Positions 4,478 to 38,100 of a stretch of 64,000 bases of DNA are shown here, in pieces. Source of the DNA: Escherichia phage AV110. The translations under genes were made by a program, and so were the position numbers. Below the pieces are notes generated by a model. It had not been told where the DNA came from. It did not search any database and worked only from the letters and a program-made list of their open reading frames with translations. Each line of letters opens with the position of its first letter. Position 1 is the first letter of the stretch. Location: the sequence record OR352940.1; one strand, written 5' to 3'.

Positions 4478-4497
4478 AGGCCTAACTTAATAGGCCT
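4478..4497 (-). terminator. intrinsic terminator downstream of ndd-like gene
   Basis: AGGCCU stem, 8-nt loop, then UUUAAUUUAUUUUUG. Confidence 0.5.
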
Positions 4498-4504
4498 GTA
4501 TAAA

Positions 4505-4951
4505 TTAGTAACTCTGCAGAATGAATTTGAAATTATCAGCCAGAAGACGGTTCATTTCAGTGAGTGTTTGATATTCTGATGTATGGTTGCGAGTGAATGC
4601 CAGAGCCAATTGACCTTTACCATAACCAGTGGTCAGTGGTTTCATGTTCTTAGCTGCAACAAAGATTACATCATATTCAATATTGTTAGTGCCCATGGTA
4701 CGGGCTAGTTGCGAACGGCCTTGACGAATGTGAGAAAGAATTGCATCCAACCCTTGTTTAGAACGTTGACGTCCTACAAAGAATCGTGCTGCTACTTGTC
4801 GCCAATCAGATGAACCTTTAACGAAGAAGTAAAAACCTTCACGAGAACGAAACTCTTTAGAAACTTCAGAACCGTATTCGCCATTACGAACTACTGCAAC
4901 AACTTCACCGCCAACTGCCAGAAGGTCTTTACGAGTTAAATATTTGGACAT
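4505..4951 (-). CDS. putative Ndd-like nucleoid disruption protein
   Basis: 148 aa; size and position (between 52 and rIIB) match T4 ndd; sequence similarity is from memory only. Confidence 0.4.
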
Positions 4952-4996
4952 GCTAATTTCCTCAATTGATTAATGTTTTTTGTAATCCATGAGAGA

Positions 4997-5026
4997 ATTA
5001 TACTCTGCTCTCAAGAGTTTGTACAA
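4997..5026 (-). promoter_or_regulatory. early promoter (TTGTAC-18-TATAAT)
   Basis: Upstream of ORF 4505..4951; near-identical about 35-bp element recurs at 49971-50000. Confidence 0.45.
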
Positions 5027-5028
5027 TT

Positions 5029-5229
5029 TTATTCGGCTATATCAGAACGTTCAAAAAGCTCTTCAACAGTTAAACATTCAGTGTCATCTTCAATAAAGAA
5101 TCGAGTCCAACACGTTGGGGCGATACAGTTATGAGTTTGTCCGGCGATAGAAGCTACACGAATAAGCTGCTGGCCGTTATTCAGAACAAATTTTTCACCA
5201 ATTTCAACATCTTTAAAAAGCTTAGCCAT
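5029..5229 (-). CDS. hypothetical protein (66 aa)
   Basis: ORF with GGAA RBS downstream of early promoter at 5258-5287. Confidence 0.45.
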   Translation of the reverse strand: MAKLFKDVEIGEKFVLNNGQQLIRVASIAGQTHNCIAPTCWTRFFIEDDTECLTVEELFERSDIAE

Positions 5230-5257
5230 TTTGTGTTCCTCATGTTTCAGTAGGACT

Positions 5258-5287
5258 ACTATACCATAATCCTACCTTGTTGTAAAC
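5258..5287 (-). promoter_or_regulatory. early promoter (GTTTAC-18-TATAGT)
   Basis: Upstream of ORF 5029..5229; -10 followed by AGTCCTAC. Confidence 0.45.
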
Positions 5288-5289
5288 AA

Positions 5290-5400
5290 TTAAATTACAT
5301 TAAAATATGTTAAAGCCAACCATGTTCCAGTGAACGAACATGCGATGTAAAACCACGCATCACAAATTGTTCTTAGTACAATAAGAAGTGCATTTTTCAT
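5290..5400 (-). CDS. small hydrophobic protein (36 aa)
   Basis: Hand-found ORF MKNALLIVLRTICDAWFYIACSF... with GAGGT RBS and upstream TTGCTT/TATAAT promoter. Confidence 0.25.
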   Translation of the reverse strand: MKNALLIVLRTICDAWFYIACSFTGTWLALTYFNVI

Positions 5401-5424
5401 AAGTACCTCAACACAATTGAAAAT

Positions 5425-5453
5425 ATTATACAAATCATTGGGATACTAAGCAA
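5425..5453 (-). promoter_or_regulatory. sigma70-like promoter (TTGCTT-17-TATAAT)
   Basis: Upstream of small ORF 5290..5400. Confidence 0.35.
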
Positions 5454-5479
5454 CCATATTCCTATCCACATTTTAGAGC

Positions 5480-5743
5480 TCATATCTCAACTTCCGCGAG
5501 TTCCATATATCCTTTGTTGATAACCTCTTTAAGGTCTTTAGAAAGAATAACACCAAAATGGTCGTTCATATGTCCGTTAACTAAACGAGTTATTTCGGCT
5601 TCAGATGACATATAAGGCACGTCCGAGTCCCAATGAGATAGACCCAAATGGGTATAAATCATCCCTTCGTCATCTGCAGTGTTGTACATTGAAACAAATT
5701 CGCCTGTTACTTTATGTTTTGCGTAGAAAAATTTAAATTTCAT
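5480..5743 (-). CDS. hypothetical protein (87 aa)
   Basis: ORF with AAGAGG RBS just downstream of early promoter at 5770-5799. Confidence 0.5.
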   Translation of the reverse strand: MKFKFFYAKHKVTGEFVSMYNTADDEGMIYTHLGLSHWDSDVPYMSSEAEITRLVNGHMNDHFGVILSKDLKEVINKGYMELAEVEI

Positions 5744-5769
5744 GATGTTATCCTCTTTTAGATAGGACT

Positions 5770-5799
5770 ACTATATCATAGTCCTACTTAGTTGTAAAC
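5770..5799 (-). promoter_or_regulatory. early promoter (GTTTAC-18-TATAGT)
   Basis: Upstream of ORF 5480..5743; -10 flanked by inverted repeat AGGACTA/TAGTCCT. Confidence 0.45.
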
Positions 5800-5811
5800 A
5801 CTTTTATGAAA

Positions 5812-6369
5812 TTAAAGATGAAGATACCACCCGTTGTAGTTGCTCTTGCGGACGATTTTCTTTAGGTCTTCATGGTCTCCCACGAACTTTATAGAATAAG
5901 AGAAGACGTCAGGTGAGGTTTCTTTGACATCTAATATAATAATGCAATCTGCGACTCGATGGTTCAAGAAGGGCCCTATATTGATTCCATTACCACCCGG
6001 ATAATCACCACTGTATCCTGTGGTAACCGAAATCCATTTCGAATCCATCTGATGGGTCTTTACTTCTACGCGTAGACCACAGTACTTAGGATGAGCTAAA
6101 ACGTCCCATGCATACGTGTACGGGTCTTCTACGTCTTCATTACCTTTATTAACATATCCGTCTAGCCAATTTGCTACTACATACTCTGCAAAGACTGCAA
6201 CCTTACAACGTCGAACAACGTCTTCTTTTATTTGACCTGGATCTTGTTTCAACGAGTACCGAGCAGTATCAGCGATCTTAACCTTCATTTCGCTAGTCAA
6301 AAACTCATTCGACAGGATAAATGTCGGAAGACTATTCAGCCTCAACAACCCCAAGTTCGTCTTTACCAT
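5812..6369 (-). CDS. hypothetical protein in denB position (about 185 aa)
   Basis: ATG at 6369 has GAGG RBS and gives 185 aa, the size of T4 endonuclease IV; assignment by synteny only; track start 6432 overlaps upstream ORF. Confidence 0.35.
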   Translation of the reverse strand: MVKTNLGLLRLNSLPTFILSNEFLTSEMKVKIADTARYSLKQDPGQIKEDVVRRCKVAVFAEYVVANWLDGYVNKGNEDVEDPYTYAWDVLAHPKYCGLRVEVKTHQMDSKWISVTTGYSGDYPGGNGINIGPFLNHRVADCIIILDVKETSPDVFSYSIKFVGDHEDLKKIVRKSNYNGWYLHL

Positions 6370-6592
6370 AGATACCTCTGATGTGTAGTTCGCCAAAATA
6401 AATGCGGTCTCCTTCTTCAAGATATTCTGCATCTACCGGTGGGATTTCAATAACAACTTCGTCGCATTCTAACCAGCCGTAGTGTGCATCGCCAGGATGT
6501 TTTACCAATTTAGCACAATAAACTGATTTACACTTATGGTGACCACGAAGATTAGCAATTTTGGATTCTGATACGTCAAATGGATGAATCAT
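6332..6592 (-). CDS. hypothetical protein (86 aa)
   Basis: ORF immediately downstream of rIIB terminator. Confidence 0.4.
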   Translation of the reverse strand: MIHPFDVSESKIANLRGHHKCKSVYCAKLVKHPGDAHYGWLECDEVVIEIPPVDAEYLEEGDRIYFGELHIRGIYGKDELGVVEAE

Positions 6593-6612
6593 AATTACCC
6601 CTAAAGAAAAAA

Positions 6613-6628
6613 GGGGACCGAAGTCCCC
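6613..6628 (-). terminator. intrinsic terminator downstream of rIIB
   Basis: GGGGAC-UUCG-GUCCCC followed by UUUUUUCUUU. Confidence 0.65.
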
Positions 6629-6633
6629 AATTA

Positions 6634-7560
6634 TTATTCTGCAAATAATTCAGTAACGTCTGAAATTACTTCATAACGACATGTACGCATCTTAGCATCG
6701 CCATAGTCAACCGGGATGGATACAACATCACGTGGATGAACTTTAACCTTAACAACTTTATCTGAGCTAGAACCAAAGTGACGAATATATGATTTAGCGC
6801 AAACATGTAGACCACGGGAGCAGGTTTGTGTATCATCATCGTTAACACGAGTACGAGGCATTGAAACAACTTTACCTGGTGAGTTATCAAATGTACCGCT
6901 ATAACAATCTAAATAGTCTTTACGAACTACTTTCCACGCGTAGAAATGCCCATCTTCAGTGATTTCAATATCATTTGCAACCAAGAAGTCGAATAAACGT
7001 TGTACAGCTTTTTCGCTCGGGTTTTCTAACAGGTTTTCAAGGAACGGTAGATAGAATTTAAAGTCTTCGCCTTTTTCCATTGAATCAATAATACGGTTAA
7101 CCAGCCCTGAACGAATCTCTATACCTTGATAAAATAAACTACCACCTTCAATAACAACATTACCGTCAACAAACTTACTAATAGCTTTCTTGATGTTAAT
7201 AAGTTCGACAGCTTTACTAAGGTTTCCTGCGACCAGATTAGCTTTAATTTCTTCAAAATTTGCATGACTTGATGGAGTCGCATTGTATGCTACGCGTCCT
7301 TCAATAATTGAAATAAATTTAGATGACGCGTTCCATACGATTTCAGGACGATGGCCGCCGATAATAGGTTCATCATTTTCTGGAACTTCTTCAACTTTCG
7401 AAGTCTCATCTTCGGCTTTAAAATTCTTAACAATCTTACGAAGAGTATCTGTTGAAATGTCGAAGTAATCAGCAATTTCCCGACGGGTCCATTGACCTGA
7501 TTCAACCAGTCTGTAAGCTTCTAACTGTTCTTCTTTGGACAAGCATTTGATATTGTACAT
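6634..7560 (-). CDS. rIIB: rIIB
   Basis: 308 aa directly downstream of rIIA; size and position as T4 rIIB (312 aa). Confidence 0.85.
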   Translation of the reverse strand: MYNIKCLSKEEQLEAYRLVESGQWTRREIADYFDISTDTLRKIVKNFKAEDETSKVEEVPENDEPIIGGHRPEIVWNASSKFISIIEGRVAYNATPSSHANFEEIKANLVAGNLSKAVELINIKKAISKFVDGNVVIEGGSLFYQGIEIRSGLVNRIIDSMEKGEDFKFYLPFLENLLENPSEKAVQRLFDFLVANDIEITEDGHFYAWKVVRKDYLDCYSGTFDNSPGKVVSMPRTRVNDDDTQTCSRGLHVCAKSYIRHFGSSSDKVVKVKVHPRDVVSIPVDYGDAKMRTCRYEVISDVTELFAE

Positions 7561-7569
7561 AATGTTTCC

Positions 7570-9783
7570 TTATTTGGCCGCTTCCACGGCCTTCATGAAT
7601 TTAACGATTTGAGCGACCTGTTCTTTGGAAAGAGTACCACGTCGTCCCATGTAGTCTGACACAATATGATAATTGGTTTCGAATTCAATAACCATTTTAT
7701 CATCATTATCGTAAGCATTATCTTTAAGCTTATCGAAAATTTTAGCACACAATTCTAACTTCTTATTCAGGTCTGTATTAGTAGCACCTGCGAATCGATT
7801 CCATCCCCAACGATTATTTACTGTTGAGAGTTTTGCAAAGTCTTTACTGATTTCTTTGTTCTTAGAGCTAAAATACTTACTAAGGAAGTTAAGCTCTTCA
7901 TTACGAGTAATATGATTCAAATAAGGCTGTGCTCTACGACTTGGTGATACATACTCATCATAATCTACTTTATCGATTAGCGTAATATAGTCGTTAATTG
8001 ATTTTTCGAACAAGCATTCTACTTCACCAAGTTTACGAACTTTCTTAGCAATCTGTGGACGGACTACAGTGAACTCTTTAATACCTGACAAATCAGCAAT
8101 ACGGGTCAAGAAATTGGAGTCATAGTTCAACCAACCTTTATCTGAGTCAAGACATTCAGCATTAGAACGATTACGAACTATAGCATAACCTTGGATTTCA
8201 TCTGCTTCACTTGCCGGAATAAAGAGGTCTTCTGATACCCAAACGTCATTTTCATTCTTAAAGAATCGATGAGCACTTGGCGATTTAGGACGAGGCTCAT
8301 TAGTCCGTTTCCTGACTTCAATCCATGGCTTAACGATTTGTAAAAGCTCTGAAGTCTTGTACATGTTAATGTTGTCGCCATCAAAGATAACTTTAAGGCG
8401 TTCCAGAAGTTTCATTGCATCTTCGTCTGTAGGGTCAACGAATAGTACACTTTTACCAAAACCGCGTGGAACTTTACCAGTTAATTTAACCTCGTCTTTA
8501 GACATTTCAATTGAATTAAGAGCTCGCATTAATGGAACGCGGCCCTTAACGTCGTCAATAACAATTTCAACATTTTTAATGTTAATGCCAATCAGACTGT
8601 TAATTGAAATGGTTGCCGTTGAGCTACCGCTTTCACGAATACGACGAAGACGAGGGGATTCAACGATATCGTATACGACACCAAGATTACACCACTCAGG
8701 CCCCATTTTAAAACGTTTGTACAACTCAGAATAAGTTAGTTGTTCTTTAGAGTATTTCAGTGATTCAATATTAGACCCGGCCTTTTCCATGTATTTACGA
8801 GCGGTATAGCCAAGAGAATCAATTTCACGGAACACATGACGTGGGTATTTACAATCAATCCATTTCTTAGAATCTTCAGCAAATAATTTTGCATCAATTT
8901 CTGCAACACGTTTATGGATATTTGCTACTGTACGTTTATCAAATGACAATGCTTCACGAGACGGGGCTACATCTAGTTCACCCATAGGGAATTTAATATA
9001 AGCTGTAGTGCATCGTGTCATCATCCATGTTTGTTCTTTAATAACACTTCCGATTGGATATACAATACCACCGTAAACAGCCATGATATTACCGCGTTCA
9101 CCCCATGGAGCTTCCTTGGCCAAATATACATCGTCAAATTCAGGGAAGTATTTAATATCTTTAACACCACGAACTTCTGCAATATCACCTAGAGGACGCA
9201 TAACATATGCAATTTCGGATGCGAACTTTTCAAAATCTTCTGGGTTAACAGGCACAACTACTTCAACGCCGGTCCGGTCATCAGGACCCATCTTATCTAC
9301 AAAGGTCGGCTTAATTTGTGGACCCGTGTCATCTTGGTAGATTACGTAACCACGAACTTCACCGTTGTGATAAGACGTAAGGTTAAACGTATCGGTATAT
9401 GCTAGTGGAGCTTTAGAACCGAGTCCGAATCCACCAATGAAATCGTTACTCGATGTTTTAGTTGAAGCAAAATATGAGTTATAGATTCCTGGCTCTTCGT
9501 CATTACCTCGAATGGTGAAATCACTCATACCAGGACCAAAGTCTCGAACTACAAAACGTGGGTCTAAACGACCTGGAGCCTGAACAATAAACTTATCAGT
9601 GCAACCATTAAGAATTTGTCCATCGATACAGTTTGTGATTAATTCACGTACACAAGCCAATTCTTTGTTTGTATAAAGGTCATTAGACAAAATCTTATAA
9701 ACTTTGCTATTGCCTTGAATAGTAAATGCTGTGCTTTTACCACCAGAACCAATAATCGTTTCTTTAGCCGTTTCAATAATCAT
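7570..9783 (-). CDS. rIIA: rIIA
   Basis: 737 aa; N-terminal GHKL-ATPase-like region (ELITNCIDG...DFGPGM); size and position as T4 rIIA. Confidence 0.9.
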   Translation of the reverse strand: MIIETAKETIIGSGGKSTAFTIQGNSKVYKILSNDLYTNKELACVRELITNCIDGQILNGCTDKFIVQAPGRLDPRFVVRDFGPGMSDFTIRGNDEEPGIYNSYFASTKTSSNDFIGGFGLGSKAPLAYTDTFNLTSYHNGEVRGYVIYQDDTGPQIKPTFVDKMGPDDRTGVEVVVPVNPEDFEKFASEIAYVMRPLGDIAEVRGVKDIKYFPEFDDVYLAKEAPWGERGNIMAVYGGIVYPIGSVIKEQTWMMTRCTTAYIKFPMGELDVAPSREALSFDKRTVANIHKRVAEIDAKLFAEDSKKWIDCKYPRHVFREIDSLGYTARKYMEKAGSNIESLKYSKEQLTYSELYKRFKMGPEWCNLGVVYDIVESPRLRRIRESGSSTATISINSLIGINIKNVEIVIDDVKGRVPLMRALNSIEMSKDEVKLTGKVPRGFGKSVLFVDPTDEDAMKLLERLKVIFDGDNINMYKTSELLQIVKPWIEVRKRTNEPRPKSPSAHRFFKNENDVWVSEDLFIPASEADEIQGYAIVRNRSNAECLDSDKGWLNYDSNFLTRIADLSGIKEFTVVRPQIAKKVRKLGEVECLFEKSINDYITLIDKVDYDEYVSPSRRAQPYLNHITRNEELNFLSKYFSSKNKEISKDFAKLSTVNNRWGWNRFAGATNTDLNKKLELCAKIFDKLKDNAYDNDDKMVIEFETNYHIVSDYMGRRGTLSKEQVAQIVKFMKAVEAAK

Positions 9784-9795
9784 ATTTTTCTCTCA

Positions 9796-9996
9796 TCACA
9801 AGTTACGTTTAAAAATTTCTGCCACTTCAAGAAGTTCTTCTTTAGTAGCTGTATCGGTTTGTATTTTATATCGAATTTCTTTAAAGCGTTCTTTAAAGGA
9901 CTCTGCTGACTCGATATCAAAAAATCTTTGGATAAGCCGGAATTCCCGGAGCACTGCTTTATCAAAAAGTTCCAAGTCCACGTTATATGTTCTCAT
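9796..9996 (-). CDS. hypothetical protein (66 aa)
   Basis: ORF between glycosyltransferase and rIIA; position of T4 rIIA.1. Confidence 0.45.
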   Translation of the reverse strand: MRTYNVDLELFDKAVLREFRLIQRFFDIESAESFKERFKEIRYKIQTDTATKEELLEVAEIFKRNL

Positions 9997-10088
9997 AATA
10001 TTCTCTTCAGTAGATTCCTAGGGCACTATTACTAAAGACCATATAATCTATCATCTTATGTGTAATAGTGCCTCAGGCTATTCAGGAT

Positions 10089-11189
10089 TTACGCTGTGAA
10101 GATTTTATCCCACATCGCAACAACTGCATCTCGATTATACTTCTTCCATACTGCTTCAGCACGTTTAACTCGAGCTTCGTATGTGTCAGTGAATTCTAAT
10201 ACAGCTTTTGTGTAAAGCGCAACTACTTCTTTCTTAGGAGTAGAGGAATCAATTTCTACACGCACAGTATCTGGGTCATATTCGAATGTCGCGTGCGGAT
10301 AATCCTTAAAAACTAACTGAATCACAGGGACACCTTTAGAGATGGCTTCAATAGAACTATTCTCTACCGTACCTGTGTCAGGACACGTATTAATAAGTGC
10401 TTTAGCTGTTTTAAGACGTTCCATGATTTCACTGTGTGGAGCATCAATAATAACAGGATACTTAGCCGGTGGTGCCCATTTACTAGGACAGTATCCTGCA
10501 CCATTTTCGCCTAGTGCTTTAATCGCTTCAAGAGCAACATCAGTACGACGCATTTTAGTGTCATAACGTTGTGCACTAATAATCAGATCCGTCGCCGGAA
10601 GAACTTCAGGTTTCTCATTCAAACAAATAACCGGATAATCTTCGGCTTCAAACAACGGATTTGCTCGCCAATAATCATAATCAATTTTGTCAGTCAGACC
10701 TGAAGTCATATAACAATATTTGCGTTCAAATTCACGGAAGGCTTTAGTAGGAGCATAACTCTTACCACCATTCTTATGAATTTGAATAGTCTGGTCCCAA
10801 ATTTGAACAATGCCACGAGATACCGGTTCAAATGGTGTTGCCATAAAATTCTTATGAACTTTAGAGAGACCCGCGTCTTTAATTGCCTGAACGGTTAGTT
10901 TGGTCGGTTCCATTGTAACAACGAAATCATACTCATTAATGCCGGCTAGTTCAACAATCTTACGAGCCATAGTATAACTCATACCTAGACTGAATTTAGT
11001 CAGATGACCAACAGGATGATGATTAACTTTCCAATCACCAAATGTGTCATTATCAAAACCGATATAATCAATATCAGCACCGATGGACACAAGATATTTC
11101 AACACATTTAAATGTACTGCTTCAAGACCACCTTGTACACGGTCAGGATTAAATGGGACTGCACGAGATGGGATAAACATAACTTTCAT
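10089..11189 (-). CDS. GT-B fold glycosyltransferase, candidate DNA hmC glycosyl/arabinosyl-transferase
   Basis: 366 aa; GT4-like N-terminus MKVMFIPSRAVPF...GGLEAVHLNVLKYL and C-terminal E...EAISKGVPVIQ donor-binding pattern; third gene from rIIA, where T4 has gene 60/mobA. Confidence 0.6.
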   Translation of the reverse strand: MKVMFIPSRAVPFNPDRVQGGLEAVHLNVLKYLVSIGADIDYIGFDNDTFGDWKVNHHPVGHLTKFSLGMSYTMARKIVELAGINEYDFVVTMEPTKLTVQAIKDAGLSKVHKNFMATPFEPVSRGIVQIWDQTIQIHKNGGKSYAPTKAFREFERKYCYMTSGLTDKIDYDYWRANPLFEAEDYPVICLNEKPEVLPATDLIISAQRYDTKMRRTDVALEAIKALGENGAGYCPSKWAPPAKYPVIIDAPHSEIMERLKTAKALINTCPDTGTVENSSIEAISKGVPVIQLVFKDYPHATFEYDPDTVRVEIDSSTPKKEVVALYTKAVLEFTDTYEARVKRAEAVWKKYNRDAVVAMWDKIFTA

Positions 11190-11215
11190 AATTAAGCCTT
11201 ATTAAAATTAAAATG

Positions 11216-11233
11216 AAGCTCCCGAAGGAGCTT
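11216..11233 (-). terminator. hairpin after gene 39 (attenuator/terminator-like)
   Basis: AAGCUCC-UUCG-GGAGCUU overlapping gene 39 stop, followed by interrupted U-tract. Confidence 0.35.
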
Positions 11234-13049
11234 AGGACATCCATTCTTTACGAAGTTCTGAATCATCACCCATCAACATTTCAAAGAGTTCTTTCCAATT
11301 TTCAGGAAGTTTAACTACGTCGTACACAGGGTTCTGAATCATTTCACGATATTCTGACTTTTCAAGGGAGCCTAATCCCTTGATGTATCGAATACTATGC
11401 TTAGGCAGTGTATCTTTAACTTCTTCATACTCAGCTACAGTATAAAACCATTTTTGAGTTTTGCCAATTTGTGCAATAATTACAGGCGTTTTAACAAAGC
11501 GAATACGTCCTTGTTCAAACAATTCAGGCCAATTACTAAAGAAAGCAAGCAAAGCCGGATAGATACTTCCAAGACCGTCGTGATCTGCATCGGTCATAAT
11601 TGCAATATTACGATAGTTCGTATTCTCTGCCTTTTCACCAAGAATAAGACCTGTGATAGCACAGATATCGAAGAGCTCTTTGTTCTTCATCATATCAGCA
11701 TATGACATACCCCAGCTATTCATCACCTTACCACGTAATGGGAATCCGCCGTGTAGTTCACGGTCACGAACATCAATGAGATAACCAATTGCCGAATCAC
11801 CTTCTGTTAAAAACAATGTCGTATCTGCATCTTTACCACATTGGTTAGCTTTAATATGCTTATGAACCTTAGCTTTAGTTGCCTTTTTAGCTGCTTTAGT
11901 TTCTGCAGCCTTTTCTGCTGCCAATTTACGAGCTAATGCTGCTTCAACAATAGGCATAATCAAGGCTTCGTTTTTAAGAAGTGCCTGAGCAATTTTCTTA
12001 GCATCTAATTGGATATGATTACGAATATCACCATACGTTGACGTTAAACGTTCTTTAGTCTGAGAATCAAAACGCATGTTGCTCATGTCTCTAATAAACA
12101 TCAACATTGTGAGGCATTCTTTAACACGAGCTTTAGTGACTTCAATACCCTTATATTTCTTTTTAATACCCGGTAAAAGATGTTCGCAGATATCATCCAT
12201 TACACATTCAACATGATGACCGCCATTTTTAGTATGGATGTTATTCACATAAGTTAAATGACGGAAGCCATCTGGTGATGTTGTGAATGCTATAGAGACT
12301 TTATCATTTTCTTGAATGATGTTATCTTCACCAAATTGTTTAGCAAATCGTTTAAAATTACCATCAACCTTTTTACCATTAAATGTGAACTTGATATCAG
12401 GATAAACGACTGCCAATGTTTGAAGTCGGTCTAAAGTAATATCTAAATAAATTTGAGATAAATTATGCTCTTCAAATGAAGAGAAATCAGGAGTGAAGAT
12501 TACTTTAGTGCCTTTACCTTTAGATTTCTTAGAAGACCATGATTTGTTTTCCATTCCGTTTGAACAGTTAACAGTGATTTCATTTTCGCCATCTGACGTG
12601 ATGCCTGTAAACAACGTAGAGAAGATATTAGTTAAACTACTCCCGACGCCGTTCATACCACCAGTCTTGCGTTCAGAGTCATCACCAAAGTTACCACCGG
12701 CCTTTGGAATAGTCCAGGCTGCTACAGGCCCAGGAATTTGTTCATCTGTTTGGTCAGTAACTAAACCTTGAGGAATACCACGTCCGTTATCTTCCACCGA
12801 AACTTGATTATTTTTAATTTGCACATCAATTTTATTTGCAAACTTAAATGATGTACGAATAGCTTCATCAACCGAGTTGTCAATAATCTCATCGATTAAT
12901 TTAACCAGACCAGGAACATATTCAACTTGTTGATATTTACCAAACAAAAAACGCTCATGTGCTTCTTTAGCAGAAGAACCAATATACATACCACTACGTT
13001 TCTTAATATGTTCTACATCTGACAATACCTTAATTTCATTTTTAATCAT
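11232..13049 (-). CDS. 39: DNA topoisomerase II large subunit gp39 (uninterrupted 39+60 form)
   Basis: 605 aa; GyrB-like GHKL ATPase (GMYIGS, DNGRGIP, GG.NGVGSS) and TOPRIM (LFLTEGDSA); fused form as in T2/T6. Confidence 0.9.
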   Translation of the reverse strand: MIKNEIKVLSDVEHIKKRSGMYIGSSAKEAHERFLFGKYQQVEYVPGLVKLIDEIIDNSVDEAIRTSFKFANKIDVQIKNNQVSVEDNGRGIPQGLVTDQTDEQIPGPVAAWTIPKAGGNFGDDSERKTGGMNGVGSSLTNIFSTLFTGITSDGENEITVNCSNGMENKSWSSKKSKGKGTKVIFTPDFSSFEEHNLSQIYLDITLDRLQTLAVVYPDIKFTFNGKKVDGNFKRFAKQFGEDNIIQENDKVSIAFTTSPDGFRHLTYVNNIHTKNGGHHVECVMDDICEHLLPGIKKKYKGIEVTKARVKECLTMLMFIRDMSNMRFDSQTKERLTSTYGDIRNHIQLDAKKIAQALLKNEALIMPIVEAALARKLAAEKAAETKAAKKATKAKVHKHIKANQCGKDADTTLFLTEGDSAIGYLIDVRDRELHGGFPLRGKVMNSWGMSYADMMKNKELFDICAITGLILGEKAENTNYRNIAIMTDADHDGLGSIYPALLAFFSNWPELFEQGRIRFVKTPVIIAQIGKTQKWFYTVAEYEEVKDTLPKHSIRYIKGLGSLEKSEYREMIQNPVYDVVKLPENWKELFEMLMGDDSELRKEWMS

Positions 13050-31547: not shown

Positions 31548-32096
31548 TTAACGAGCCCATTTGATGATTTCTGTAATCAAACCATTACGTTCGCTTGCAT
31601 TAAATCCTATAACTTTGTTAGCACCATCATGATTAAGTAATTGATATGTTTGGATTTTGTTATGAATTGCAAACTCTTCAAAATGTGAAATGACTGTATT
31701 AAAACCGAATGAAGACAAAGTAATAAGGTCGTCTTCAAAACTTTCAGTCATTTCGTTACGTGTTAAAATAATTGTGAACACATCATGGTTTTGGCAAAGA
31801 CGAACATAATCCTGTTCATAAACGTCAAGAACCGAGTCAGCATCTTGTCGAATACGTCCATAAACCCAGTTACTAATATATCCACGGTCTAACAGATAAA
31901 TCTTAGTAGGGTCTAAATAATTCAACATCGTTTCGAAACAGCCAACTTCATTTCGAGACTTAACATCGAAACGCCCATCAACTGTTCGTTTAGGGAAATC
32001 AATCTTTACATATCTTTCACTAATTTCCATTATGTCATTAATGAAAGTTGTTTTACCAGCATTATCCGGGCCATCTACTAAAATAATTTTAGCCAT
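31548..32096 (-). CDS. P-loop kinase-like protein (182 aa)
   Basis: Walker A ILVDGPDNAGKTT at N-terminus, small-kinase size; no T4 counterpart at this position. Confidence 0.5.
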   Translation of the reverse strand: MAKIILVDGPDNAGKTTFINDIMEISERYVKIDFPKRTVDGRFDVKSRNEVGCFETMLNYLDPTKIYLLDRGYISNWVYGRIRQDADSVLDVYEQDYVRLCQNHDVFTIILTRNEMTESFEDDLITLSSFGFNTVISHFEEFAIHNKIQTYQLLNHDGANKVIGFNASERNGLITEIIKWAR

Positions 32097-32097
32097 T

Positions 32098-32997
32098 TTA
32101 TTCCTCGATTACGACATCTTCATATTTAGGTATATTATACGGCGAAGAAATTAAAGCATTAAAGTAGATGAACTCACCAAGACCTGGATGGAATACTTCT
32201 TCAGGATTTTCGAAATATTGAATTTTCGGACGCCCTTTAAGAATTTGATAGTACTCTGTTTTAGTTGGTTTAAAAATTCGAATCAGCGCTTCTTCAGGAT
32301 ACTTATTTCTGTCGAAGCTATTATTTGGATCGGTTATATAAAGCGGTTGGCCTAATTGAATTGCACATTCAACCACTTGTTCAAAACGATAGCACGGGTC
32401 ACTAATTCGAAATGGATGAAAAATACCATCTAGATAAATAGGAGCCAAATCACCTACAAGACGCTGCATGATGGAAGGACGTATAACTTTCTGCGTTACG
32501 ATAATCTTATTACCATCTGCACCTGCGTTAACCAGCACTTCTTTTTGACGTTCATTCAACACAGTAGTTTGAAGTGAACGATTAACCGACAACATATCAG
32601 TTTTTAAGAATTCATCAATATAAAAACGTGGTTTATTAGGGTCTGCAGTGATATTGAAATTGAATTCCACATCAAAAGCGCCGTCATATCCAGTGATATC
32701 TGTGATTAGAAAATCACAGTCATAATAAGCAATTAATGAATCAACCACAAATCCATTTTCAGACCAGAAATATTTACGAGTGTTATACGCGTTATCTTTA
32801 TACCATAATGGAACAAACTTAAATTCTGGAAAAAGACGTTCGCATTCTTTAATATCAGATGCATTACGTGGATATGTAATCACATCACCCGGATTAGCAC
32901 GGTGCAAATGAAGTTGGAAGTTGCCATCCTTAAGGATAGCATACTGTCCAGTTTCATAAGACCGCATACTCAAGATTGGTACGCGGAAAATAGCCAT
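32098..32997 (-). CDS. protein at beta-glucosyltransferase position (299 aa), possible glycosyltransferase
   Basis: Occupies the slot between 42 and uvsX where T4 has beta-gt (351 aa); no confident motif. Confidence 0.4.
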   Translation of the reverse strand: MAIFRVPILSMRSYETGQYAILKDGNFQLHLHRANPGDVITYPRNASDIKECERLFPEFKFVPLWYKDNAYNTRKYFWSENGFVVDSLIAYYDCDFLITDITGYDGAFDVEFNFNITADPNKPRFYIDEFLKTDMLSVNRSLQTTVLNERQKEVLVNAGADGNKIIVTQKVIRPSIMQRLVGDLAPIYLDGIFHPFRISDPCYRFEQVVECAIQLGQPLYITDPNNSFDRNKYPEEALIRIFKPTKTEYYQILKGRPKIQYFENPEEVFHPGLGEFIYFNALISSPYNIPKYEDVVIEE

Positions 32998-33713
32998 TAG
33001 TCAAGGAATCCTTTAACATAATCAAAATCACGTTCAAACACATGGGCACTTACCATGGTATGAGTATAATCACCAACTTCTACACCGCATTCGTTAGCGA
33101 TATAATGAAGTAATTTTCCTTGGAGATAAAAATCCAACTGCATAACAACAGCACAGTTCTGAGAACGCATATGACAGTGGGTATAAAGCTTACCATCACG
33201 AATATAATAAGTCACTGAGTCAGTACATGGATATTCAAGTGTTTCGTCTGAATCAAGCAAAGCCTGATCAGAACTTTCTAGAATTTGGAACACAACTCTT
33301 CGGGAGTTAGGCTTCTCTTTAAGTTCTTTTAGAAGAGCTGGTAATTGAGCCGCAATGCGAGGACCATAGAAAGTGTTGAAGTTCGCCGGCAAAACATCTG
33401 ATTTTGGTTTAGAAATAAATTTAGCGACATTAGGATATGTCTTAAACGCTTCTTCTGCGTTGGTACCACCAGAAATCATAAACTTCCAGAAGTCTTCGGC
33501 ATATTCATAAGAGATGCGGTTAATACGTGGGTCGGTCATTTTGAATGATGATGGAGTGTCAACAACTACTGTCATAGACCCAATTTCATTACAACGTCCA
33601 ATACGAGAATCAGTTACGAATTCCGGGTTTTCTAAAATTTCACGATTGACTGCTTTAAATGCGGTTTGAAAATCTGCGGCTTTGATATATTTCATTGTGT
33701 TATGTTTTCCCAT
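32997..33713 (-). CDS. 42: dCMP hydroxymethylase gp42 (thymidylate-synthase fold)
   Basis: 238 aa; TS-like core with catalytic Cys context (LEYPCTDSVTYY...HCHMRSQN); size/position as T4 gene 42. Confidence 0.65.
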   Translation of the reverse strand: MGKHNTMKYIKAADFQTAFKAVNREILENPEFVTDSRIGRCNEIGSMTVVVDTPSSFKMTDPRINRISYEYAEDFWKFMISGGTNAEEAFKTYPNVAKFISKPKSDVLPANFNTFYGPRIAAQLPALLKELKEKPNSRRVVFQILESSDQALLDSDETLEYPCTDSVTYYIRDGKLYTHCHMRSQNCAVVMQLDFYLQGKLLHYIANECGVEVGDYTHTMVSAHVFERDFDYVKGFLD

Positions 33714-33755
33714 GTTTACCTCAATACAATTTATTATATACTCAATTCGTAAAGC

Positions 33756-33995
33756 TTATTTGAATTTCTTGACAATGTTGACATAACGTAAAGCTTCAGC
33801 ATCGATACTTCCAAGAACACTATGAAGAAATGCATCAGCGTAGTATTCCAATTGAACAGGTTCTTTAATCACTTTAGCCGCTTTAGTTTCAAACAGGCCC
33901 ATCAGGGCCTTTTTAAGAATTTGTTCATTAGTGTTCAGATTCATAGTCAAAATCTCTTCATTAAGTTGGTGGTTAAAAGTTTTTCTAGAAATCAT
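33756..33995 (-). CDS. hypothetical protein (79 aa)
   Basis: ORF with ATGA overlap to upstream enzyme gene. Confidence 0.45.
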   Translation of the reverse strand: MISRKTFNHQLNEEILTMNLNTNEQILKKALMGLFETKAAKVIKEPVQLEYYADAFLHSVLGSIDAEALRYVNIVKKFK

Positions 33996-35152
33996 TCCGG
34001 GTACCTCAAAGCGTCATCAGAGTTAGTTATATCAATAATAGATATAGAGTTTTCTGCTAACCCGTTTTTAGATAATTGACGTTTATAATATCTTTCACAA
34101 TATGTACACGTCGTCCCGCAGATTTCATTAGCACAATCGAAATCTGGATGTCTGAACCACCTTTTTTCTAAAAAGCCATCTAACAAAGAGGTTTCAATAT
34201 TTACTGTATGTGAAAACTCAGTTTCGTTTTCAAGAGTGAAAATAGTCTCTAAAGGCTTCCACAGTTCTAACAAATTACCTTCAAACTTTTCAGAAGCGTA
34301 TGCTTCAAGAACTTTCAAAATGTAGTCTGTGCTACCTGTACGTCCTGAAACTTTGAATTGAGTGATACCAATATCATTATAAAGTTTCAAATCTTGAGGA
34401 CGAACAAAACGAGTTCTCAACCAGTTAAATGGGTCTGTATCACGAGCTTTAATACAGTGCTGCATAGGATATCCGTTTAAGGATTTAGCATCATCAGCTG
34501 TAACATCAGTACTATGGAAAATATAGCAAGAGTCACGATAGCTACAATGTGTTGTATACCCTTTACCAGCATTAGAACAGAACTCATTTACAAGAACTTC
34601 AAATATTATATTGTTCTTATTGCAAAACTCTGCTGCACGCTTCAGGAAAGAAACTGAACGGTTCTTATGAATTCCACAGCAGACCTTTTTGATATTATAT
34701 TGGTCATGCAAGTATTTGATTTGAGTTACAGCATCGACATGTAGAATTGTTGAAACTTCAATCTCAATGTCTTTATTGACTTCACGAACAATTTCCATAA
34801 CAACAGGGTTAGCGATAGTAATACGCCATACGCCTATTGACCAAAGATACTGAACATAATCCTGAATAGCTTTCTTCTTCCACTCAACTAGTTCTCTTTT
34901 TGAACCAGGATTTATCGTGTTGAGTGTATAGTTAAAGCAAATACCTAATTCGTTACAACGTTTAACGTAATCTTCTAACATCTTTTTGTCAACGTCAGGA
35001 AGCCTAAAATCAGGTCTGGCTGCTACAAAAGCCATTTCTCTTGTAGAGCCATATACTTCGTTTATCAAGCTATTAGGATAGGTTTTATTGAGCTCTACGA
35101 TTTTATCAAGAAGAGCTAAATCAAAATTTGTTCCGATTTTAAAAGTATTCAT
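33992..35152 (-). CDS. Cys-rich enzyme of unknown function (386 aa), possible Fe-S protein
   Basis: Several Cys clusters including C-x4-C-x3-C-x2-C near C-terminus (DCANEICGTTCTYCERY); embedded in the sugar-nucleotide cluster. Confidence 0.5.
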   Translation of the reverse strand: MNTFKIGTNFDLALLDKIVELNKTYPNSLINEVYGSTREMAFVAARPDFRLPDVDKKMLEDYVKRCNELGICFNYTLNTINPGSKRELVEWKKKAIQDYVQYLWSIGVWRITIANPVVMEIVREVNKDIEIEVSTILHVDAVTQIKYLHDQYNIKKVCCGIHKNRSVSFLKRAAEFCNKNNIIFEVLVNEFCSNAGKGYTTHCSYRDSCYIFHSTDVTADDAKSLNGYPMQHCIKARDTDPFNWLRTRFVRPQDLKLYNDIGITQFKVSGRTGSTDYILKVLEAYASEKFEGNLLELWKPLETIFTLENETEFSHTVNIETSLLDGFLEKRWFRHPDFDCANEICGTTCTYCERYYKRQLSKNGLAENSISIIDITNSDDALRYPE

Positions 35153-35211
35153 TTTTTTTGCATCTCACGTTAATTGATGCGATGGTTTTTTTGCAGGTCT
35201 TACTTAAATTA

Positions 35212-35613
35212 TTATAGATTCGGTTTATACGATTTAAATGTTTCGAATTCGCCTTTATTCATAAGAGCTTTGAATTCGTCAGGACGCATAGCTTTGTCGT
35301 CGATAATCCAATCATATACTGGTTTATGTGTTAGCAAATTATGGTACTTCAAGCCAATGTTTGCCAAGTTCTGAATCAGACTTGGGAGAATGTCAATTGC
35401 TATACGACCAGGACCTACTGACTTCATACCGCGAGCAGTGTAAAGCGTTATTGTATGCCCTGCATCATACAGAGCATTAATGGCAGACACCATTTCGACG
35501 TCCGGTTTGAAGTTCACATAATCACGATTGTTATTCCACTCTGTTATACAATCATCGACATCAAAACAAAGATTAAGCATGTTTTCTACACGGTGCATTA
35601 GATTCGTTCCCAT
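35212..35613 (-). CDS. HAD-superfamily phosphatase-like protein
   Basis: Motif I LCFDVDDCIT, motif II ITLYTAR, motif III K...DD; start may be Met-6 (TAATG-coupled at about 35598). Confidence 0.55.
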   Translation of the reverse strand: MGTNLMHRVENMLNLCFDVDDCITEWNNNRDYVNFKPDVEMVSAINALYDAGHTITLYTARGMKSVGPGRIAIDILPSLIQNLANIGLKYHNLLTHKPVYDWIIDDKAMRPDEFKALMNKGEFETFKSYKPNL

Positions 35614-37283
35614 TGATGAGTGATATCGCCACCGATTGGACGATAAGAAACACCAGTTTCTTTATCAGTTAGTACCCATTTACCAGGATTTTTTGTAATC
35701 AGAGTAGCCGTTACAGGTTCTGCTACGTCATAACTAATAGAGCCGTCCTGAAGTACACGGCCCATGTTACGTAATTGCTTAGTCAGAAGTTCCATACCTT
35801 TATAATATGCGGCTACCGCTTTAAGTGGATTATTCTTGAAATAACCACCTAATGCAATCCAGATAATTGCTACAGCCAAATGATGATATTCATTAAACGA
35901 ACTCAGCTTTCCATATTTGTAAACTAATGGATTGATGTTAATAGTCACATTACAAGTTGTTTCATCAATAGTAAACTGTCCCCAGGTCGGATTAGCGTTG
36001 AATTCATCATAACCTGAAACAGCGTAAAGCACTTTAGCTTCGTCGTACAATTTCGGCCCGTAAATCTTGGTTTCGCCAAAATATCCACGAGGGTCGATAA
36101 ACTTGACTTCGCCGTTATCAGTAATCATAGTATTACTGAAGTTCGGGTCACCATGAATAACAGAGTACTGTCCCTGAGAACGGTTATGATAACGAATAAG
36201 GTGTTCTAAAGCTTGTTTCAGCATTGGCTTCAGACGTCCAATCTTAGTGTAGTTCACATGTGTGATTTTACCAAATGAATCAATCAATGGTTGAATGCTT
36301 TCACAACGATCAATAACTTTCGTATAGAATTCTTTAGTGAAATCACGACGAACAGTTTCAGGACTTACAAAATAAGTGTCTGCGCTGAATTTCAGTGCAT
36401 CTAAAATTGCATCAATAATTTGTGGACGAGCAAGACTTGATTTTGATTTAATATATTCAAATGCCGGCTTACCTTTAATGCGTTCCATTTCAAAGTTATT
36501 TTCATTAACAGAAACTAACTGAGGAACTGAATCTGATTTCACTTTCAAATACCACGAAATCTCATCTTTCTGAAGAGCTCGACCCTGTTCGGTTAATGCG
36601 AATTTAGTTACAGTTTCTTCGCCAATTTCAACTGCATTAAAACTACGGTTCAGTTCACGAACTTCATGGGCCTTTTCAAGTTTAGGCATATCACCAAGGT
36701 CGATGATATTCATAAGCTCTGATTTATTGAATGCGCCGCTGTAAAGGAATTCTACGAAATCACGTCCTTTGCAGTATTCATGAATTTCCTCATCGGTAGA
36801 ACCCATATAGAATTCCCAGTCTTTGAACTGATAAATTCCTACAACATTACCGCCTGTTTCACCTACATTAGTGATATTTTCACCATCGAAATTATACCGA
36901 CATTCATCACCCTTAACATAGATTGCGTTAACATTCCAAGACCAAGAACCAAAATCGGGAATAATATCACACCAGTTAACAATTACATTATGGCCGTCTA
37001 AATCTTTGTGTAATTTAGCAAGAGCATAAGCAGAACCATACGCTTCATCAACTGTACGAATAGTCACATTGAACCCTTCTTGCTCACAATAAGCTCGAAC
37101 AGTTTCAGCAAATTTTGAATGAACTACTACAATAATTTCATCTGCGCCAAGGTCAGAATAAATTGTATACAAATTGCTCAGAATAGTGTCTTGCTTATAG
37201 TTAACAAGCACCTTAGGAATATGATGCGTTATTGGATACAAACGAGTTGCCAGTCCAGCACCAAGAATAACAGCTTTTTTCAT
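35598..37283 (-). CDS. bifunctional sugar-1-phosphate nucleotidyltransferase / APH-like sugar kinase
   Basis: 561 aa; N-terminus AVILGAGLATRLYPIT (RmlA/GlmU-type NTase signature); C-terminus VIHGDPNFSNTMI and FIDPRG (aminoglycoside/choline-kinase Brenner and DFG-like motifs). Confidence 0.7.
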   Translation of the reverse strand: MKKAVILGAGLATRLYPITHHIPKVLVNYKQDTILSNLYTIYSDLGADEIIVVVHSKFAETVRAYCEQEGFNVTIRTVDEAYGSAYALAKLHKDLDGHNVIVNWCDIIPDFGSWSWNVNAIYVKGDECRYNFDGENITNVGETGGNVVGIYQFKDWEFYMGSTDEEIHEYCKGRDFVEFLYSGAFNKSELMNIIDLGDMPKLEKAHEVRELNRSFNAVEIGEETVTKFALTEQGRALQKDEISWYLKVKSDSVPQLVSVNENNFEMERIKGKPAFEYIKSKSSLARPQIIDAILDALKFSADTYFVSPETVRRDFTKEFYTKVIDRCESIQPLIDSFGKITHVNYTKIGRLKPMLKQALEHLIRYHNRSQGQYSVIHGDPNFSNTMITDNGEVKFIDPRGYFGETKIYGPKLYDEAKVLYAVSGYDEFNANPTWGQFTIDETTCNVTININPLVYKYGKLSSFNEYHHLAVAIIWIALGGYFKNNPLKAVAAYYKGMELLTKQLRNMGRVLQDGSISYDVAEPVTATLITKNPGKWVLTDKETGVSYRPIGGDITHQWERI

Positions 37284-37324
37284 GTTGAAGTCCTCATTGG
37301 TAAGTAGGAGTATTGTACACTATT

Positions 37325-37468
37325 CTAGTTAAAGCATTCATACTTTGCCTGTAGACCAATCATAATCCATCCAATTACAAGTGTTGGAATCATTACCGGA
37401 GCCGTTAAGCTCCAGTAGATAGTCATGGCAAGCATCAATAGTAAAAGTCCTATTGTTATTGCTTTCAT
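37325..37468 (-). CDS. small membrane protein (47 aa)
   Basis: Hand-found ORF MKAITIGLLLLMLAMTIYWSL..., ATGA-coupled to upstream SIS gene; sits where T4 has imm/imm.1. Confidence 0.35.
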   Translation of the reverse strand: MKAITIGLLLLMLAMTIYWSLTAPVMIPTLVIGWIMIGLQAKYECFN

Positions 37469-38100
37469 TGTTCGCCTCGTAACATGGCACCTAGTGCACC
37501 ACCTGGATGGAACTTAAGGAAGTCATTAGAGGTAAATCCACGTTCAGACGAAAGGTTGATAGCGAACGTATCGATAAGCGCTAACAACAATGTAGTAGAC
37601 ATTGTCGGAGCTAAAGAGTTCTCGTCAACTTCTACCGCGATACCGGTACAGAACGTATAATCAAAAAGAGCTTCGTATTCTTGTGGAATGTCAGGGTTAC
37701 AATGTAACAGAATCTGTTTAACCTGAGGACGAATCATACGAAGATGTTTAGCAACACCTATCATTTCTTCAGTCTTACCAGAACGACTGATGTGAACTAA
37801 TACATCATTAGGTGCAATAAATCCTGCGTCACCATGAGAATAATGCCCAGTGTTCAAGTACATACTTGGGATACCGAGTGAAGCAAAAGTCTCGGAAGCT
37901 TTAGTTGCGATATTAGCGTTCTTACCAACACCTGTAATAATTACTCGGCTTTCATAATTACTAAGTCCCGGGCGTCGAAGAGTTTCTAGAATAGCATTAT
38001 AACGAGCAGGGTTTTGACTAATTACTTTAGCCATAGTGGCAAGAGATGAAGCTTGTTTTACGATTGCGTCAATAGCGATAGTGATTGGTGTAGTTTTCAT
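37465..38100 (-). CDS. SIS-domain sugar-phosphate isomerase, arabinose-5-phosphate isomerase (KdsD/GutQ)-like
   Basis: 211 aa; KdsD-type SIS motifs (TFASLGIPS, HGDAGF, ISRSGKT, LAPTMSTT, GFTSNDF..HPGGALG); lacks CBS domains. Confidence 0.7.
   Translation of the reverse strand: MKTTPITIAIDAIVKQASSLATMAKVISQNPARYNAILETLRRPGLSNYESRVIITGVGKNANIATKASETFASLGIPSMYLNTGHYSHGDAGFIAPNDVLVHISRSGKTEEMIGVAKHLRMIRPQVKQILLHCNPDIPQEYEALFDYTFCTGIAVEVDENSLAPTMSTTLLLALIDTFAINLSSERGFTSNDFLKFHPGGALGAMLRGEQ

Follow-up and report, generated by a model that had tools for sequence, protein, structure and literature searches.

Arabinose was reported in the DNA of phage RB69 by Thomas et al. (2018), who proposed from HMM comparisons and a Phyre2 model that ORF003c is an arabinosyltransferase acting on hmC (PMC6024577). 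The same work found HHpred-level similarity of ORF003c to the T4 α-glucosyltransferase (α-gt). Using MS/MS and NMR, Lee et al. (NAR 2026) identified the base as 5-hydroxycytosine (5hoC), with the sugar ether-linked at C5 (PMC13326640), and 5-hydroxycytosine is also given as the base of this phage group in PMC13390438. RB69 DNA contains α-D-Araf and β-D-Araf-(1→3)-α-D-Araf, and in Acinetobacter phage DLP3 a further arabinose, the third, is attached through a β(1→5) bond (PMC13326640). Two arabinoses are found in RB69, NP, Bas46 and Bas47 (PMC13326640, PMC13390438, PMC12923530); for the double arabinosylation of Bas46 and Bas47, PMC12923530 cites Mahler 2025. Thanatos DNA carries a single pentose (PMC12838424, PMC13326640).

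An enzymatic route to these sugars has been proposed (PMC13326640). A thymidylate-synthase homologue makes 5-hydroxy-dCMP, an activity demonstrated for RB69 gp48. The first sugar is proposed to be added by RB69 gp46:47. For gp3 (ORF003c), named "β-arabinosyltransferase 2" in Table 1 of that paper, the second step is likewise a proposal. Arabinosyl transfer onto a DNA-linked arabinose is known for DLP3 gp76 and gp77, which jointly use UDP-Araf in vitro to extend the sugars of RB69 DNA by a third arabinose. No single glycosyltransferase was active on 5hoC DNA, a result given as "data not shown" (PMC13326640).

We analyzed a window of 64,000 nucleotides (the whole stretch of DNA considered here) from Escherichia phage AV110 (OR352940.1). 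The first 20 kb are ~97% identical in DNA to several Mosigvirus genomes, and this is therefore an RB69-like phage. The window encodes a 366-aa protein from an ATG start codon, in the minus-strand order rIIB, rIIA, rIIA.1, 366-aa ORF and fused gp60+39. The ORF is a real gene and not a chance reading frame, because its product matches PHROG 8302 over the full length (E = 1e-222) and copies occur in 155 phage records at ≥95% identity and in 56 at ~43% (tblastn). RB69 ORF003c/gp3 (NP_861693) shares 99.5% identity with the protein, and the Bas47 copy (bas47_0105) shares 97.8%. The original prediction, made from the letters of the window without database searches, had described this ORF as lying two genes from rIIA and apart from the sugar-nucleotide genes, and had called for a comparison with the reported RB69 ORF next to rIIA. 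Its coordinates and length were exact. Only rIIA.1 stands between rIIA and the ORF, ~21 kb separate the ORF from the sugar-nucleotide block (31548..38100), and the comparison identifies the same gene as in RB69.

A UUCG-tetraloop hairpin directly past the gp60+39 stop codon, ~25 nt upstream of the AAGG ribosome-binding site of the 366-aa ORF, was the sole terminator-like site within 9700..11500, with a stability z-score of only -1.26. Promoter predictions near the ORF did not stand out from chance (7 sites vs 5.8 expected from shuffled sequence), and an Rfam search of 9700..11400 gave no match.

Features of the window around the 366-aa gene and in the sugar-nucleotide block
Feature	Coordinates	Strand	Assignment or basis
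rIIB	6634..7560	minus	
rIIA	7570..9783	minus	
rIIA.1	9796..9996	minus	
366-aa GT-B glycosyltransferase, RB69 ORF003c/gp3 orthologue	10089..11189	minus	Proposed second-step DNA β-arabinofuranosyltransferase (chain-extending)
UUCG-tetraloop hairpin, then T-rich run	11216..11233	minus	Candidate terminator-like site
Fused gp60+39 topoisomerase subunit, 605 aa	11232..13049	minus	
182-aa protein at RB69 gp45 position	31548..32096	minus	Predicted thymidylate-type nucleotide kinase (position; PMC13326640 Table 1)
299-aa protein, RB69 gp46:47 / DLP3 gp79 orthologue	32098..32997	minus	Proposed first arabinosyltransferase on 5-hydroxycytosine (PMC13326640)
Thymidylate-synthase homologue, 238 aa	32997..33713	minus	5-hydroxy-dCMP synthase; Pfam Thymidylat_synt
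386-aa Peptidase_U32-family protein (RB69 gp50)	33992..35152	minus	Pfam PF01136, 42 bits
133-aa protein at RB69 gp51 position	35212..35613	minus	HAD-type phosphatase, AfhF-like (assignment from PMC13326640)
561-aa bifunctional nucleotidyltransferase/kinase (RB69 gp52:53, AfhE-like)	35598..37283	minus	Makes UDP-arabinofuranose (PMC13326640)
211-aa SIS-domain protein (RB69 gp55)	37465..38100	minus	Arabinose-5-phosphate isomerase; Pfam SIS

Searches against solved structures revealed that the 366-aa protein is 98% identical, over its full length, to the "phage HY126 glycosyltransferase", available without UDP (apo, PDB 9IQZ) and with UDP (9IR0). These structures were released in July 2025, and the deposited entry holds eight or more chains (labels up to H). 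The family profile matches one PDB sequence, that of 9IQZ and 9IR0 (E = 2e-195). By near-identity to the solved 9IR0 complex, the 366-aa protein is taken to bind UDP. The AlphaFold model of the protein, made from six sequences, is only moderate (mean pLDDT 59) because the alignment is shallow, with few homologues, and the solved near-identical structure was relied on instead. The model has an alternating β/α secondary-structure pattern in both halves. In a fold search it matched 9IR0/9IQZ with a TM of 0.71-0.72 and the GT-B enzymes PimA, BshA and tetrahydrobiopterin glucosyltransferase at E ~1e-8 to 1e-9. There were ~300 matches at E ≤ 0.001, and the 50 listed were all GT-B-fold enzymes, mostly glycosyltransferases. 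A nine-member family profile also aligned end to end (344 columns, hhalign probability 98.4%) with a GT4 protein (P0015) that carries Pfam Glyco_transf_4 and Glycos_transf_1 matches.

The assignment as a GT-B glycosyltransferase thus holds. The fold had been called in the original prediction, which named structure prediction against GT-B folds as a check, and the solved structure, the fold search (PimA and BshA among its matches) and the hhalign comparison all agree with it. Family-level scans gave nothing, with cut-offs of E ≤ 10 for Pfam and E ≤ 1 for NCBIfam. The protein lies below all Pfam GT4 thresholds, so its link to GT4 is a remote, profile-profile one. The T4 α-gt and β-gt families, both of which have Pfam models, were likewise not matched at E ≤ 10. 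A diverged glycosyltransferase that Pfam and NCBIfam miss had therefore been recognized by reading the sequence alone.

The protein begins with MKVMFIPSRAVPFNPDRVQGGLEAV, in which GGLEAV spans residues 20-25. A C-terminal EX7E-like donor-binding pattern had also been predicted, and this stands in part. Its second glutamate is kept as E281, within EAISKGVPV, but there is no literal C-terminal EX7E; the protein has a single E-x7-E, at residue 86. hhalign places the EX7E of the GT4 protein on G273...E281, which puts a family-invariant glycine in the place of the first glutamate, and an invariant glutamate, E276, follows three residues past G273. Positions invariant across the family, DLP3 gp76 and gp77 among its members, include G20-G21, E94, R125, Q207-R208, R214, E276 and E281. 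By analogy with GT4 enzymes and the alignment in PMC6024577, R208, R214 and E281 are likely to contact the diphosphate and ribose of the donor.

The genome also carries a 5hodCMP synthase, a candidate initiating transferase and UDP-Araf genes, all within the sugar-nucleotide block between uvsX and the DNA polymerase gene. The thymidylate-synthase homologue matched PDB 9IQC/9IR2 (E = 2.9e-160) and is near-identical to 9IQC. We compared it with E. coli ThyA in an ungapped register anchored on DGKL...RS, since MAFFT misplaced the active-site stretch by a two-residue gap. In this register C146 is kept and two substitutions, D169N and N177D, are present. D169N is a signature of 5hodCMP synthases according to Lee et al. 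(PMC13326640), and the D169N/N177D signature therefore marks a 5hoC phage and not an hmC phage.

The 299-aa gene abuts the synthase gene. It is intact in the window; the RB69 record splits the same gene into ORF046c and ORF047c, to which the product is 98.7% identical, and identity to the protein at the Lazarus gp75 / DLP3 gp79 position is 46%. The 299-aa protein has no similarity to the 366-aa protein. In the 561-aa protein, Pfam NTP_transferase matches the N-terminal part and kinase families match the C-terminal part weakly; the role of gp52:53 is given in PMC13326640, which cites He et al. 2026. The 211-aa SIS protein has orthologues in Lazarus, DLP3 and Virsaitis27 that bear the annotation arabinose 5-phosphate isomerase. 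The 182-aa and 133-aa proteins had no Pfam match.

A separate observation concerns the U32 gene of this block. Its product is 81-84% identical among the window, Shewanella phage Thanatos-1 and Erwinia phage Virsaitis27, far more conserved than the cluster neighbors (48-60% identical). In Thanatos-1 and Virsaitis27, a type II chorismate mutase gene (above the Pfam cut-off) adjoins the U32 gene. A 79-aa ORF separates the hydroxylase and U32 genes in the window; it is not similar to the chorismate mutases that other phages encode at this position. Hydroxylation by the bacterial U32 proteins (RlhA, TrhP, UbiU/UbiV) depends on prephenate and needs no oxygen; the product of RlhA is 5-hydroxycytidine in rRNA. 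Because of these relatives, the U32 protein and chorismate mutase could, by analogy, provide an oxygen-independent route to 5-hydroxycytosine beside the flavin-/O2-dependent synthase. Acinetobacter phages lack the U32 gene, but so does E. coli phage JS98, and a correlation with host lifestyle is imperfect. A link between U32, chorismate mutase and 5-hydroxycytosine was not found in the literature searched.

We profiled the distribution of the two transferases among phage records (tblastn, E ≤ 1e-5). The ORF003c family was found in 211 phage records, covering the Mosigvirus-type copies at ≥95% identity and 55 Acinetobacter phage records. A word-indexed homology search with the 366-aa protein gave five clusters, an exhaustive search gave 12 representatives in 1.84 billion proteins, and an IMG/VR scan for the family found nothing beyond the Mosigvirus and Acinetobacter-phage lineages. 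The 299-aa transferase was found in 348 phage records, which include phages of Escherichia (Mosigvirus, Dhakavirus), Klebsiella, Enterobacter, Edwardsiella, Yersinia, Pectobacterium, Serratia, Proteus, Shewanella and Acinetobacter. It is present in every arabinosylating phage lineage examined, the single-pentose Thanatos included. No ORF003c homologue was found by tblastn in Thanatos-1, nor was one found in JS98, which has the cluster. TH1_065 of Thanatos, at the gp77 position, was considered as a distant ORF003c homologue and rejected, as it is a U32 protein and has no similarity to the 366-aa protein.

Among the few phages with measured chemistry, zero, one or two copies of the ORF003c family accompany one, two or three sugars. 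Thanatos has no copy and one pentose, the RB69-type Mosigviruses have one copy and two arabinoses, and DLP3 has two tandem paralogues and three arabinoses. We interpret the 366-aa enzyme as, in all likelihood, a chain-extending β-arabinofuranosyltransferase that adds a second arabinose to the arabinose already on 5-hydroxycytosine. The gene's identity, fold, UDP binding (by near-identity to 9IR0), pathway context and family distribution we regard as established; the acceptor, the linkage and the timing and order of the step are what we infer.

In the proposed mechanism, the cluster at 31.5-38.1 kb would supply 5-hydroxy-dCMP, then incorporated in DNA, and UDP-D-arabinofuranose. The 299-aa cluster transferase would attach the first α-arabinofuranose to the C5 oxygen. 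The 366-aa enzyme, a soluble GT-B protein, would take UDP-Araf into the cleft between its two Rossmann-like domains and link another arabinofuranose to O3 of the DNA-bound first sugar. The predicted product is β-D-Araf-(1→3)-α-D-Araf-5-hydroxy-dC, as in RB69-type virions. The thicker sugar coat may in turn change the access of host nucleases and defence systems to the DNA. Bas46 without the arabinosyltransferase Aat is viable and has altered defence sensitivity, according to PMC13216743, which cites Mahler 2025. As described there, the deletion fits a non-essential extension step, if Aat is the ORF003c-type gene.

The original prediction had cast this protein as the best candidate for the enzyme that transfers the sugar onto hmC in DNA. 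It is a glycosyltransferase of the DNA-sugar pathway, as was claimed, but the base is 5-hydroxycytosine and the first-sugar step is probably another enzyme's. An hmC acceptor is at odds with the published 5hoC chemistry (PMC13326640, PMC13390438) and with the synthase signature in the window. Glycosylation of the base itself is probably the task of the 299-aa transferase, which is conserved in Thanatos, where the ORF003c homologue was not found. Direct transfer to the base also sits badly with the ORF003c paralogues of DLP3, which extend chains and are inactive on bare 5hoC DNA (PMC13326640).

Even so, some observations would suit an initiating transferase that places arabinose straight onto the hydroxyl of the modified cytosine, be it hmC as in Thomas et al. 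(2018) or 5hoC. ORF003c was the sole recognizable glycosyltransferase in RB69 at first analysis (PMC6024577). The first step by gp46:47 is a proposal (PMC13326640), the 299-aa candidate has no sequence-level glycosyltransferase signature in Pfam, NCBIfam or PDB, and its Thanatos orthologue, TH1_063, acted as a UDP-xylose pyrophosphorylase in vitro in one study (PMC12838424). We nevertheless consider an initiating role improbable. Arabinosylating phages of many genera have no ORF003c homologue by tblastn, yet their 299-aa gene abuts the hydroxylase gene. The copy number of the family follows the count of extra sugars, and the biochemistry of the DLP3 paralogues and the identity of the base point the same way.

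DLP3 gp76 and gp77 are active only together (PMC13326640), which raises the prospect that the 366-aa enzyme needs a complex to work, formed either with further copies of itself or with the cluster transferase, and shares both sugar additions. The chains of the PDB entry are compatible with oligomers, although they may reflect crystal packing. However, the Mosigvirus enzyme is encoded by one gene, 21 kb away from that of the other transferase, and DNA modification still takes place in phages that have just the cluster transferase (PMC12838424); we give an obligate complex little credence. We regard it as highly improbable that the enzyme draws on the UDP-arabinose pool to glycosylate a non-DNA target, such as a host envelope component or a protein. 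The substrates of its nearest structural neighbors (PimA, BshA, tetrahydrobiopterin glucosyltransferase) are indeed lipids and small molecules, and the gene lies among early genes, away from the cluster. However, the Acinetobacter homologues are encoded inside the DNA-modification cluster and act on DNA in vitro (PMC13326640), and members of the family occur only in phages whose DNA is poly-arabinosylated. The chain-extending role thus remains our preferred reading, in which the enzyme would transfer Araf from UDP-Araf onto the 5hoC-linked arabinose. Because DLP3 needed gp76 and gp77 together, the single-copy enzyme may act differently from the DLP3 pair.

A chain-extending enzyme of this family raises a stereochemical question, since its relatives are retaining, yet the assigned product is β-linked and the first glutamate of EX7E is missing. 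The answer depends on the donor anomer. If the donor is UDP-α-D-Araf, as expected from an AmgK/MurU-like kinase-uridylyltransferase, inversion would be needed for the β(1→3) linkage. The family-wide change of that glutamate to glycine, together with the invariant E94 in the N-domain, could be the trace of a switch from retaining to inverting. Whether the enzyme is an inverting transferase on a retaining-GT4-like scaffold, specialized for sugar on duplex DNA, we consider doubtful.

The gene is already known: in 2018 it was suggested to encode the RB69 arabinosyltransferase, the crystal structure of a near-identical protein with UDP followed in 2025, and in 2026 the gene was assigned to the second step. 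Our analysis adds no new gene or mechanism. What it corrects is the function, since the base is 5-hydroxycytosine and the most likely role of the enzyme is sugar-chain elongation. The length reached matters because it sets apart the fate of these phages against restriction and other defence systems.

Compared with known systems, the closest relatives are RB69 ORF003c and its Mosigvirus orthologues, which share the length of 366 aa, 97.8-99.7% identity and the slot between rIIA.1 and gp60+39. There is no substantial difference from RB69 ORF003c; the window comes from another Mosigvirus isolate whose nearest record is ~97% identical in DNA. The HY126 glycosyltransferase differs by a few substitutions only. 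DLP3 gp77 and gp76 belong to the same family and are 43% and 41% identical, end to end, to the 366-aa protein. They are 57% identical to each other, and on this basis the Mosigvirus protein is a co-orthologue of both and not one-to-one with either, as judged from sequence identity. The DLP3 pair differs in being duplicated, in lying in tandem right after the kinase gene inside the cluster (in Lazarus as in DLP3), in being needed together and in adding a third sugar (β1→5), whereas the window has a single copy 21 kb from its cluster, in a phage type whose chains end at two sugars.

More distant systems share the logic or the fold. The T2/T6 β-α-glucosyltransferase, which makes gentiobiosyl-hmC, is also a second transferase that sugars the first DNA-linked sugar and not the base (PMC6024577, PMC13390438). 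It differs in using glucose and hmC, and no sequence relationship to the 366-aa protein was found in the searches made. The T4 α- and β-glucosyltransferases are alike in GT-B fold, UDP-sugar donor and duplex DNA acceptor, but they act directly on hmC, use UDP-glucose and have no sequence-level family match. The closest folds are those of the bacterial retaining GT4 enzymes (PimA, BshA, MshA, WaaG), from which the 366-aa protein differs by the glycine in place of the first EX7E glutamate, by its proposed DNA-borne sugar acceptor and by its proposed β-linked product.

In the region around the glycosyltransferase gene (the orthologue of RB69 ORF003c), the spacer that runs from the stop codon of this gene to the start codon of rIIA.1 forms a long, imperfectly paired hairpin based on 11-bp arms (GGCACTATTAC and GTAATAGTGCC). 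The predicted structure has a free energy of -30.9 kcal/mol (z = -4.56), and 0 of 200 shuffled sequences were as stable. It is almost unchanged in RB69, Bas47, and phiE142, and has no match in Rfam. On the other side of the gene, a tetraloop hairpin lies immediately after the gp60+39 stop codon and shortly before the ribosome-binding site of the glycosyltransferase gene. Its stability is unexceptional (z = -1.26); possible roles are as a terminator or as an element affecting RNA stability.

Features of the glycosyltransferase region and of the sugar-nucleotide/DNA-modification cluster
Feature	Window position	Strand	Description
Spacer hairpin, 92 nt	9997..10088	-	glycosyltransferase stop codon to rIIA.1 start codon
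Tetraloop hairpin	11216..11233	-	GCUCC-UUCG-GGAGC, then T-rich run
299-aa gene	32098..32997	-	
79-aa ORF	33756..33995	-	between U32 gene and 5hodCMP synthase
Peptidase_U32 protein, 386 aa	33992..35152	-	corresponding stretches: 8462..9852 of the Thanatos-1 locus; 4492..6002 of the Virsaitis27 locus
561-aa gene	35598..37283	-	

Labels of the ORF003c family in public records are behind the literature of 2025-2026. The orthologue is a 'hypothetical protein' in most Mosigvirus records and an 'ATP-binding protein' in one, and the two paralogues in the Acinetobacter Lazarusviruses (9001..11296 of the Lazarus locus and 6477..8772 of the DLP3 locus) are labelled 'putative DNA alpha-glucosyltransferase' or 'hypothetical protein'. 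One of the 211 matches in the phage collection comes from a record whose organism name starts with 'Tegunavirus'. If real, this match would represent a third lineage for the family.

Within the cluster, the 299-aa gene (the proposed first arabinosyltransferase) and the 561-aa gene (nucleotidyltransferase/kinase) are each one unbroken ORF. In the RB69 GenBank record the former is divided between ORF046c and ORF047c. Lee et al. (PMC13326640) report that the counterpart of the latter is also split, as ORF052c/053c, and attribute the RB69 splits to sequencing errors. The unbroken genes in the window are consistent with that view.

The same authors enter the U32 protein of the cluster merely as a 'sugar or heterocycle reductase' (PMC13326640). 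The U32 proteins of Mosigvirus, Shewanella phage Thanatos-1, and Erwinia phage Virsaitis27 share 81-84% identity and keep 13 cysteines, and the neighbouring cluster genes are much less conserved. Neither the Acinetobacter phages nor JS98 carry the gene. In Thanatos-1 and Virsaitis27 its immediate neighbour is the gene of a type II chorismate mutase (44.6 and 34.7 bits against Pfam CM_2), which in Virsaitis27 takes the slot of the window's 79-aa ORF and in Thanatos-1 lies on the opposite side of the U32 gene. No similarity was found between the 79-aa ORF and these chorismate mutases, and the ORF has no match in Pfam. Since the bacterial U32 proteins RlhA, TrhP, and UbiU/V are prephenate-dependent, O2-independent hydroxylases, the phage U32 gene may provide an anaerobic route to 5-hydroxycytosine.
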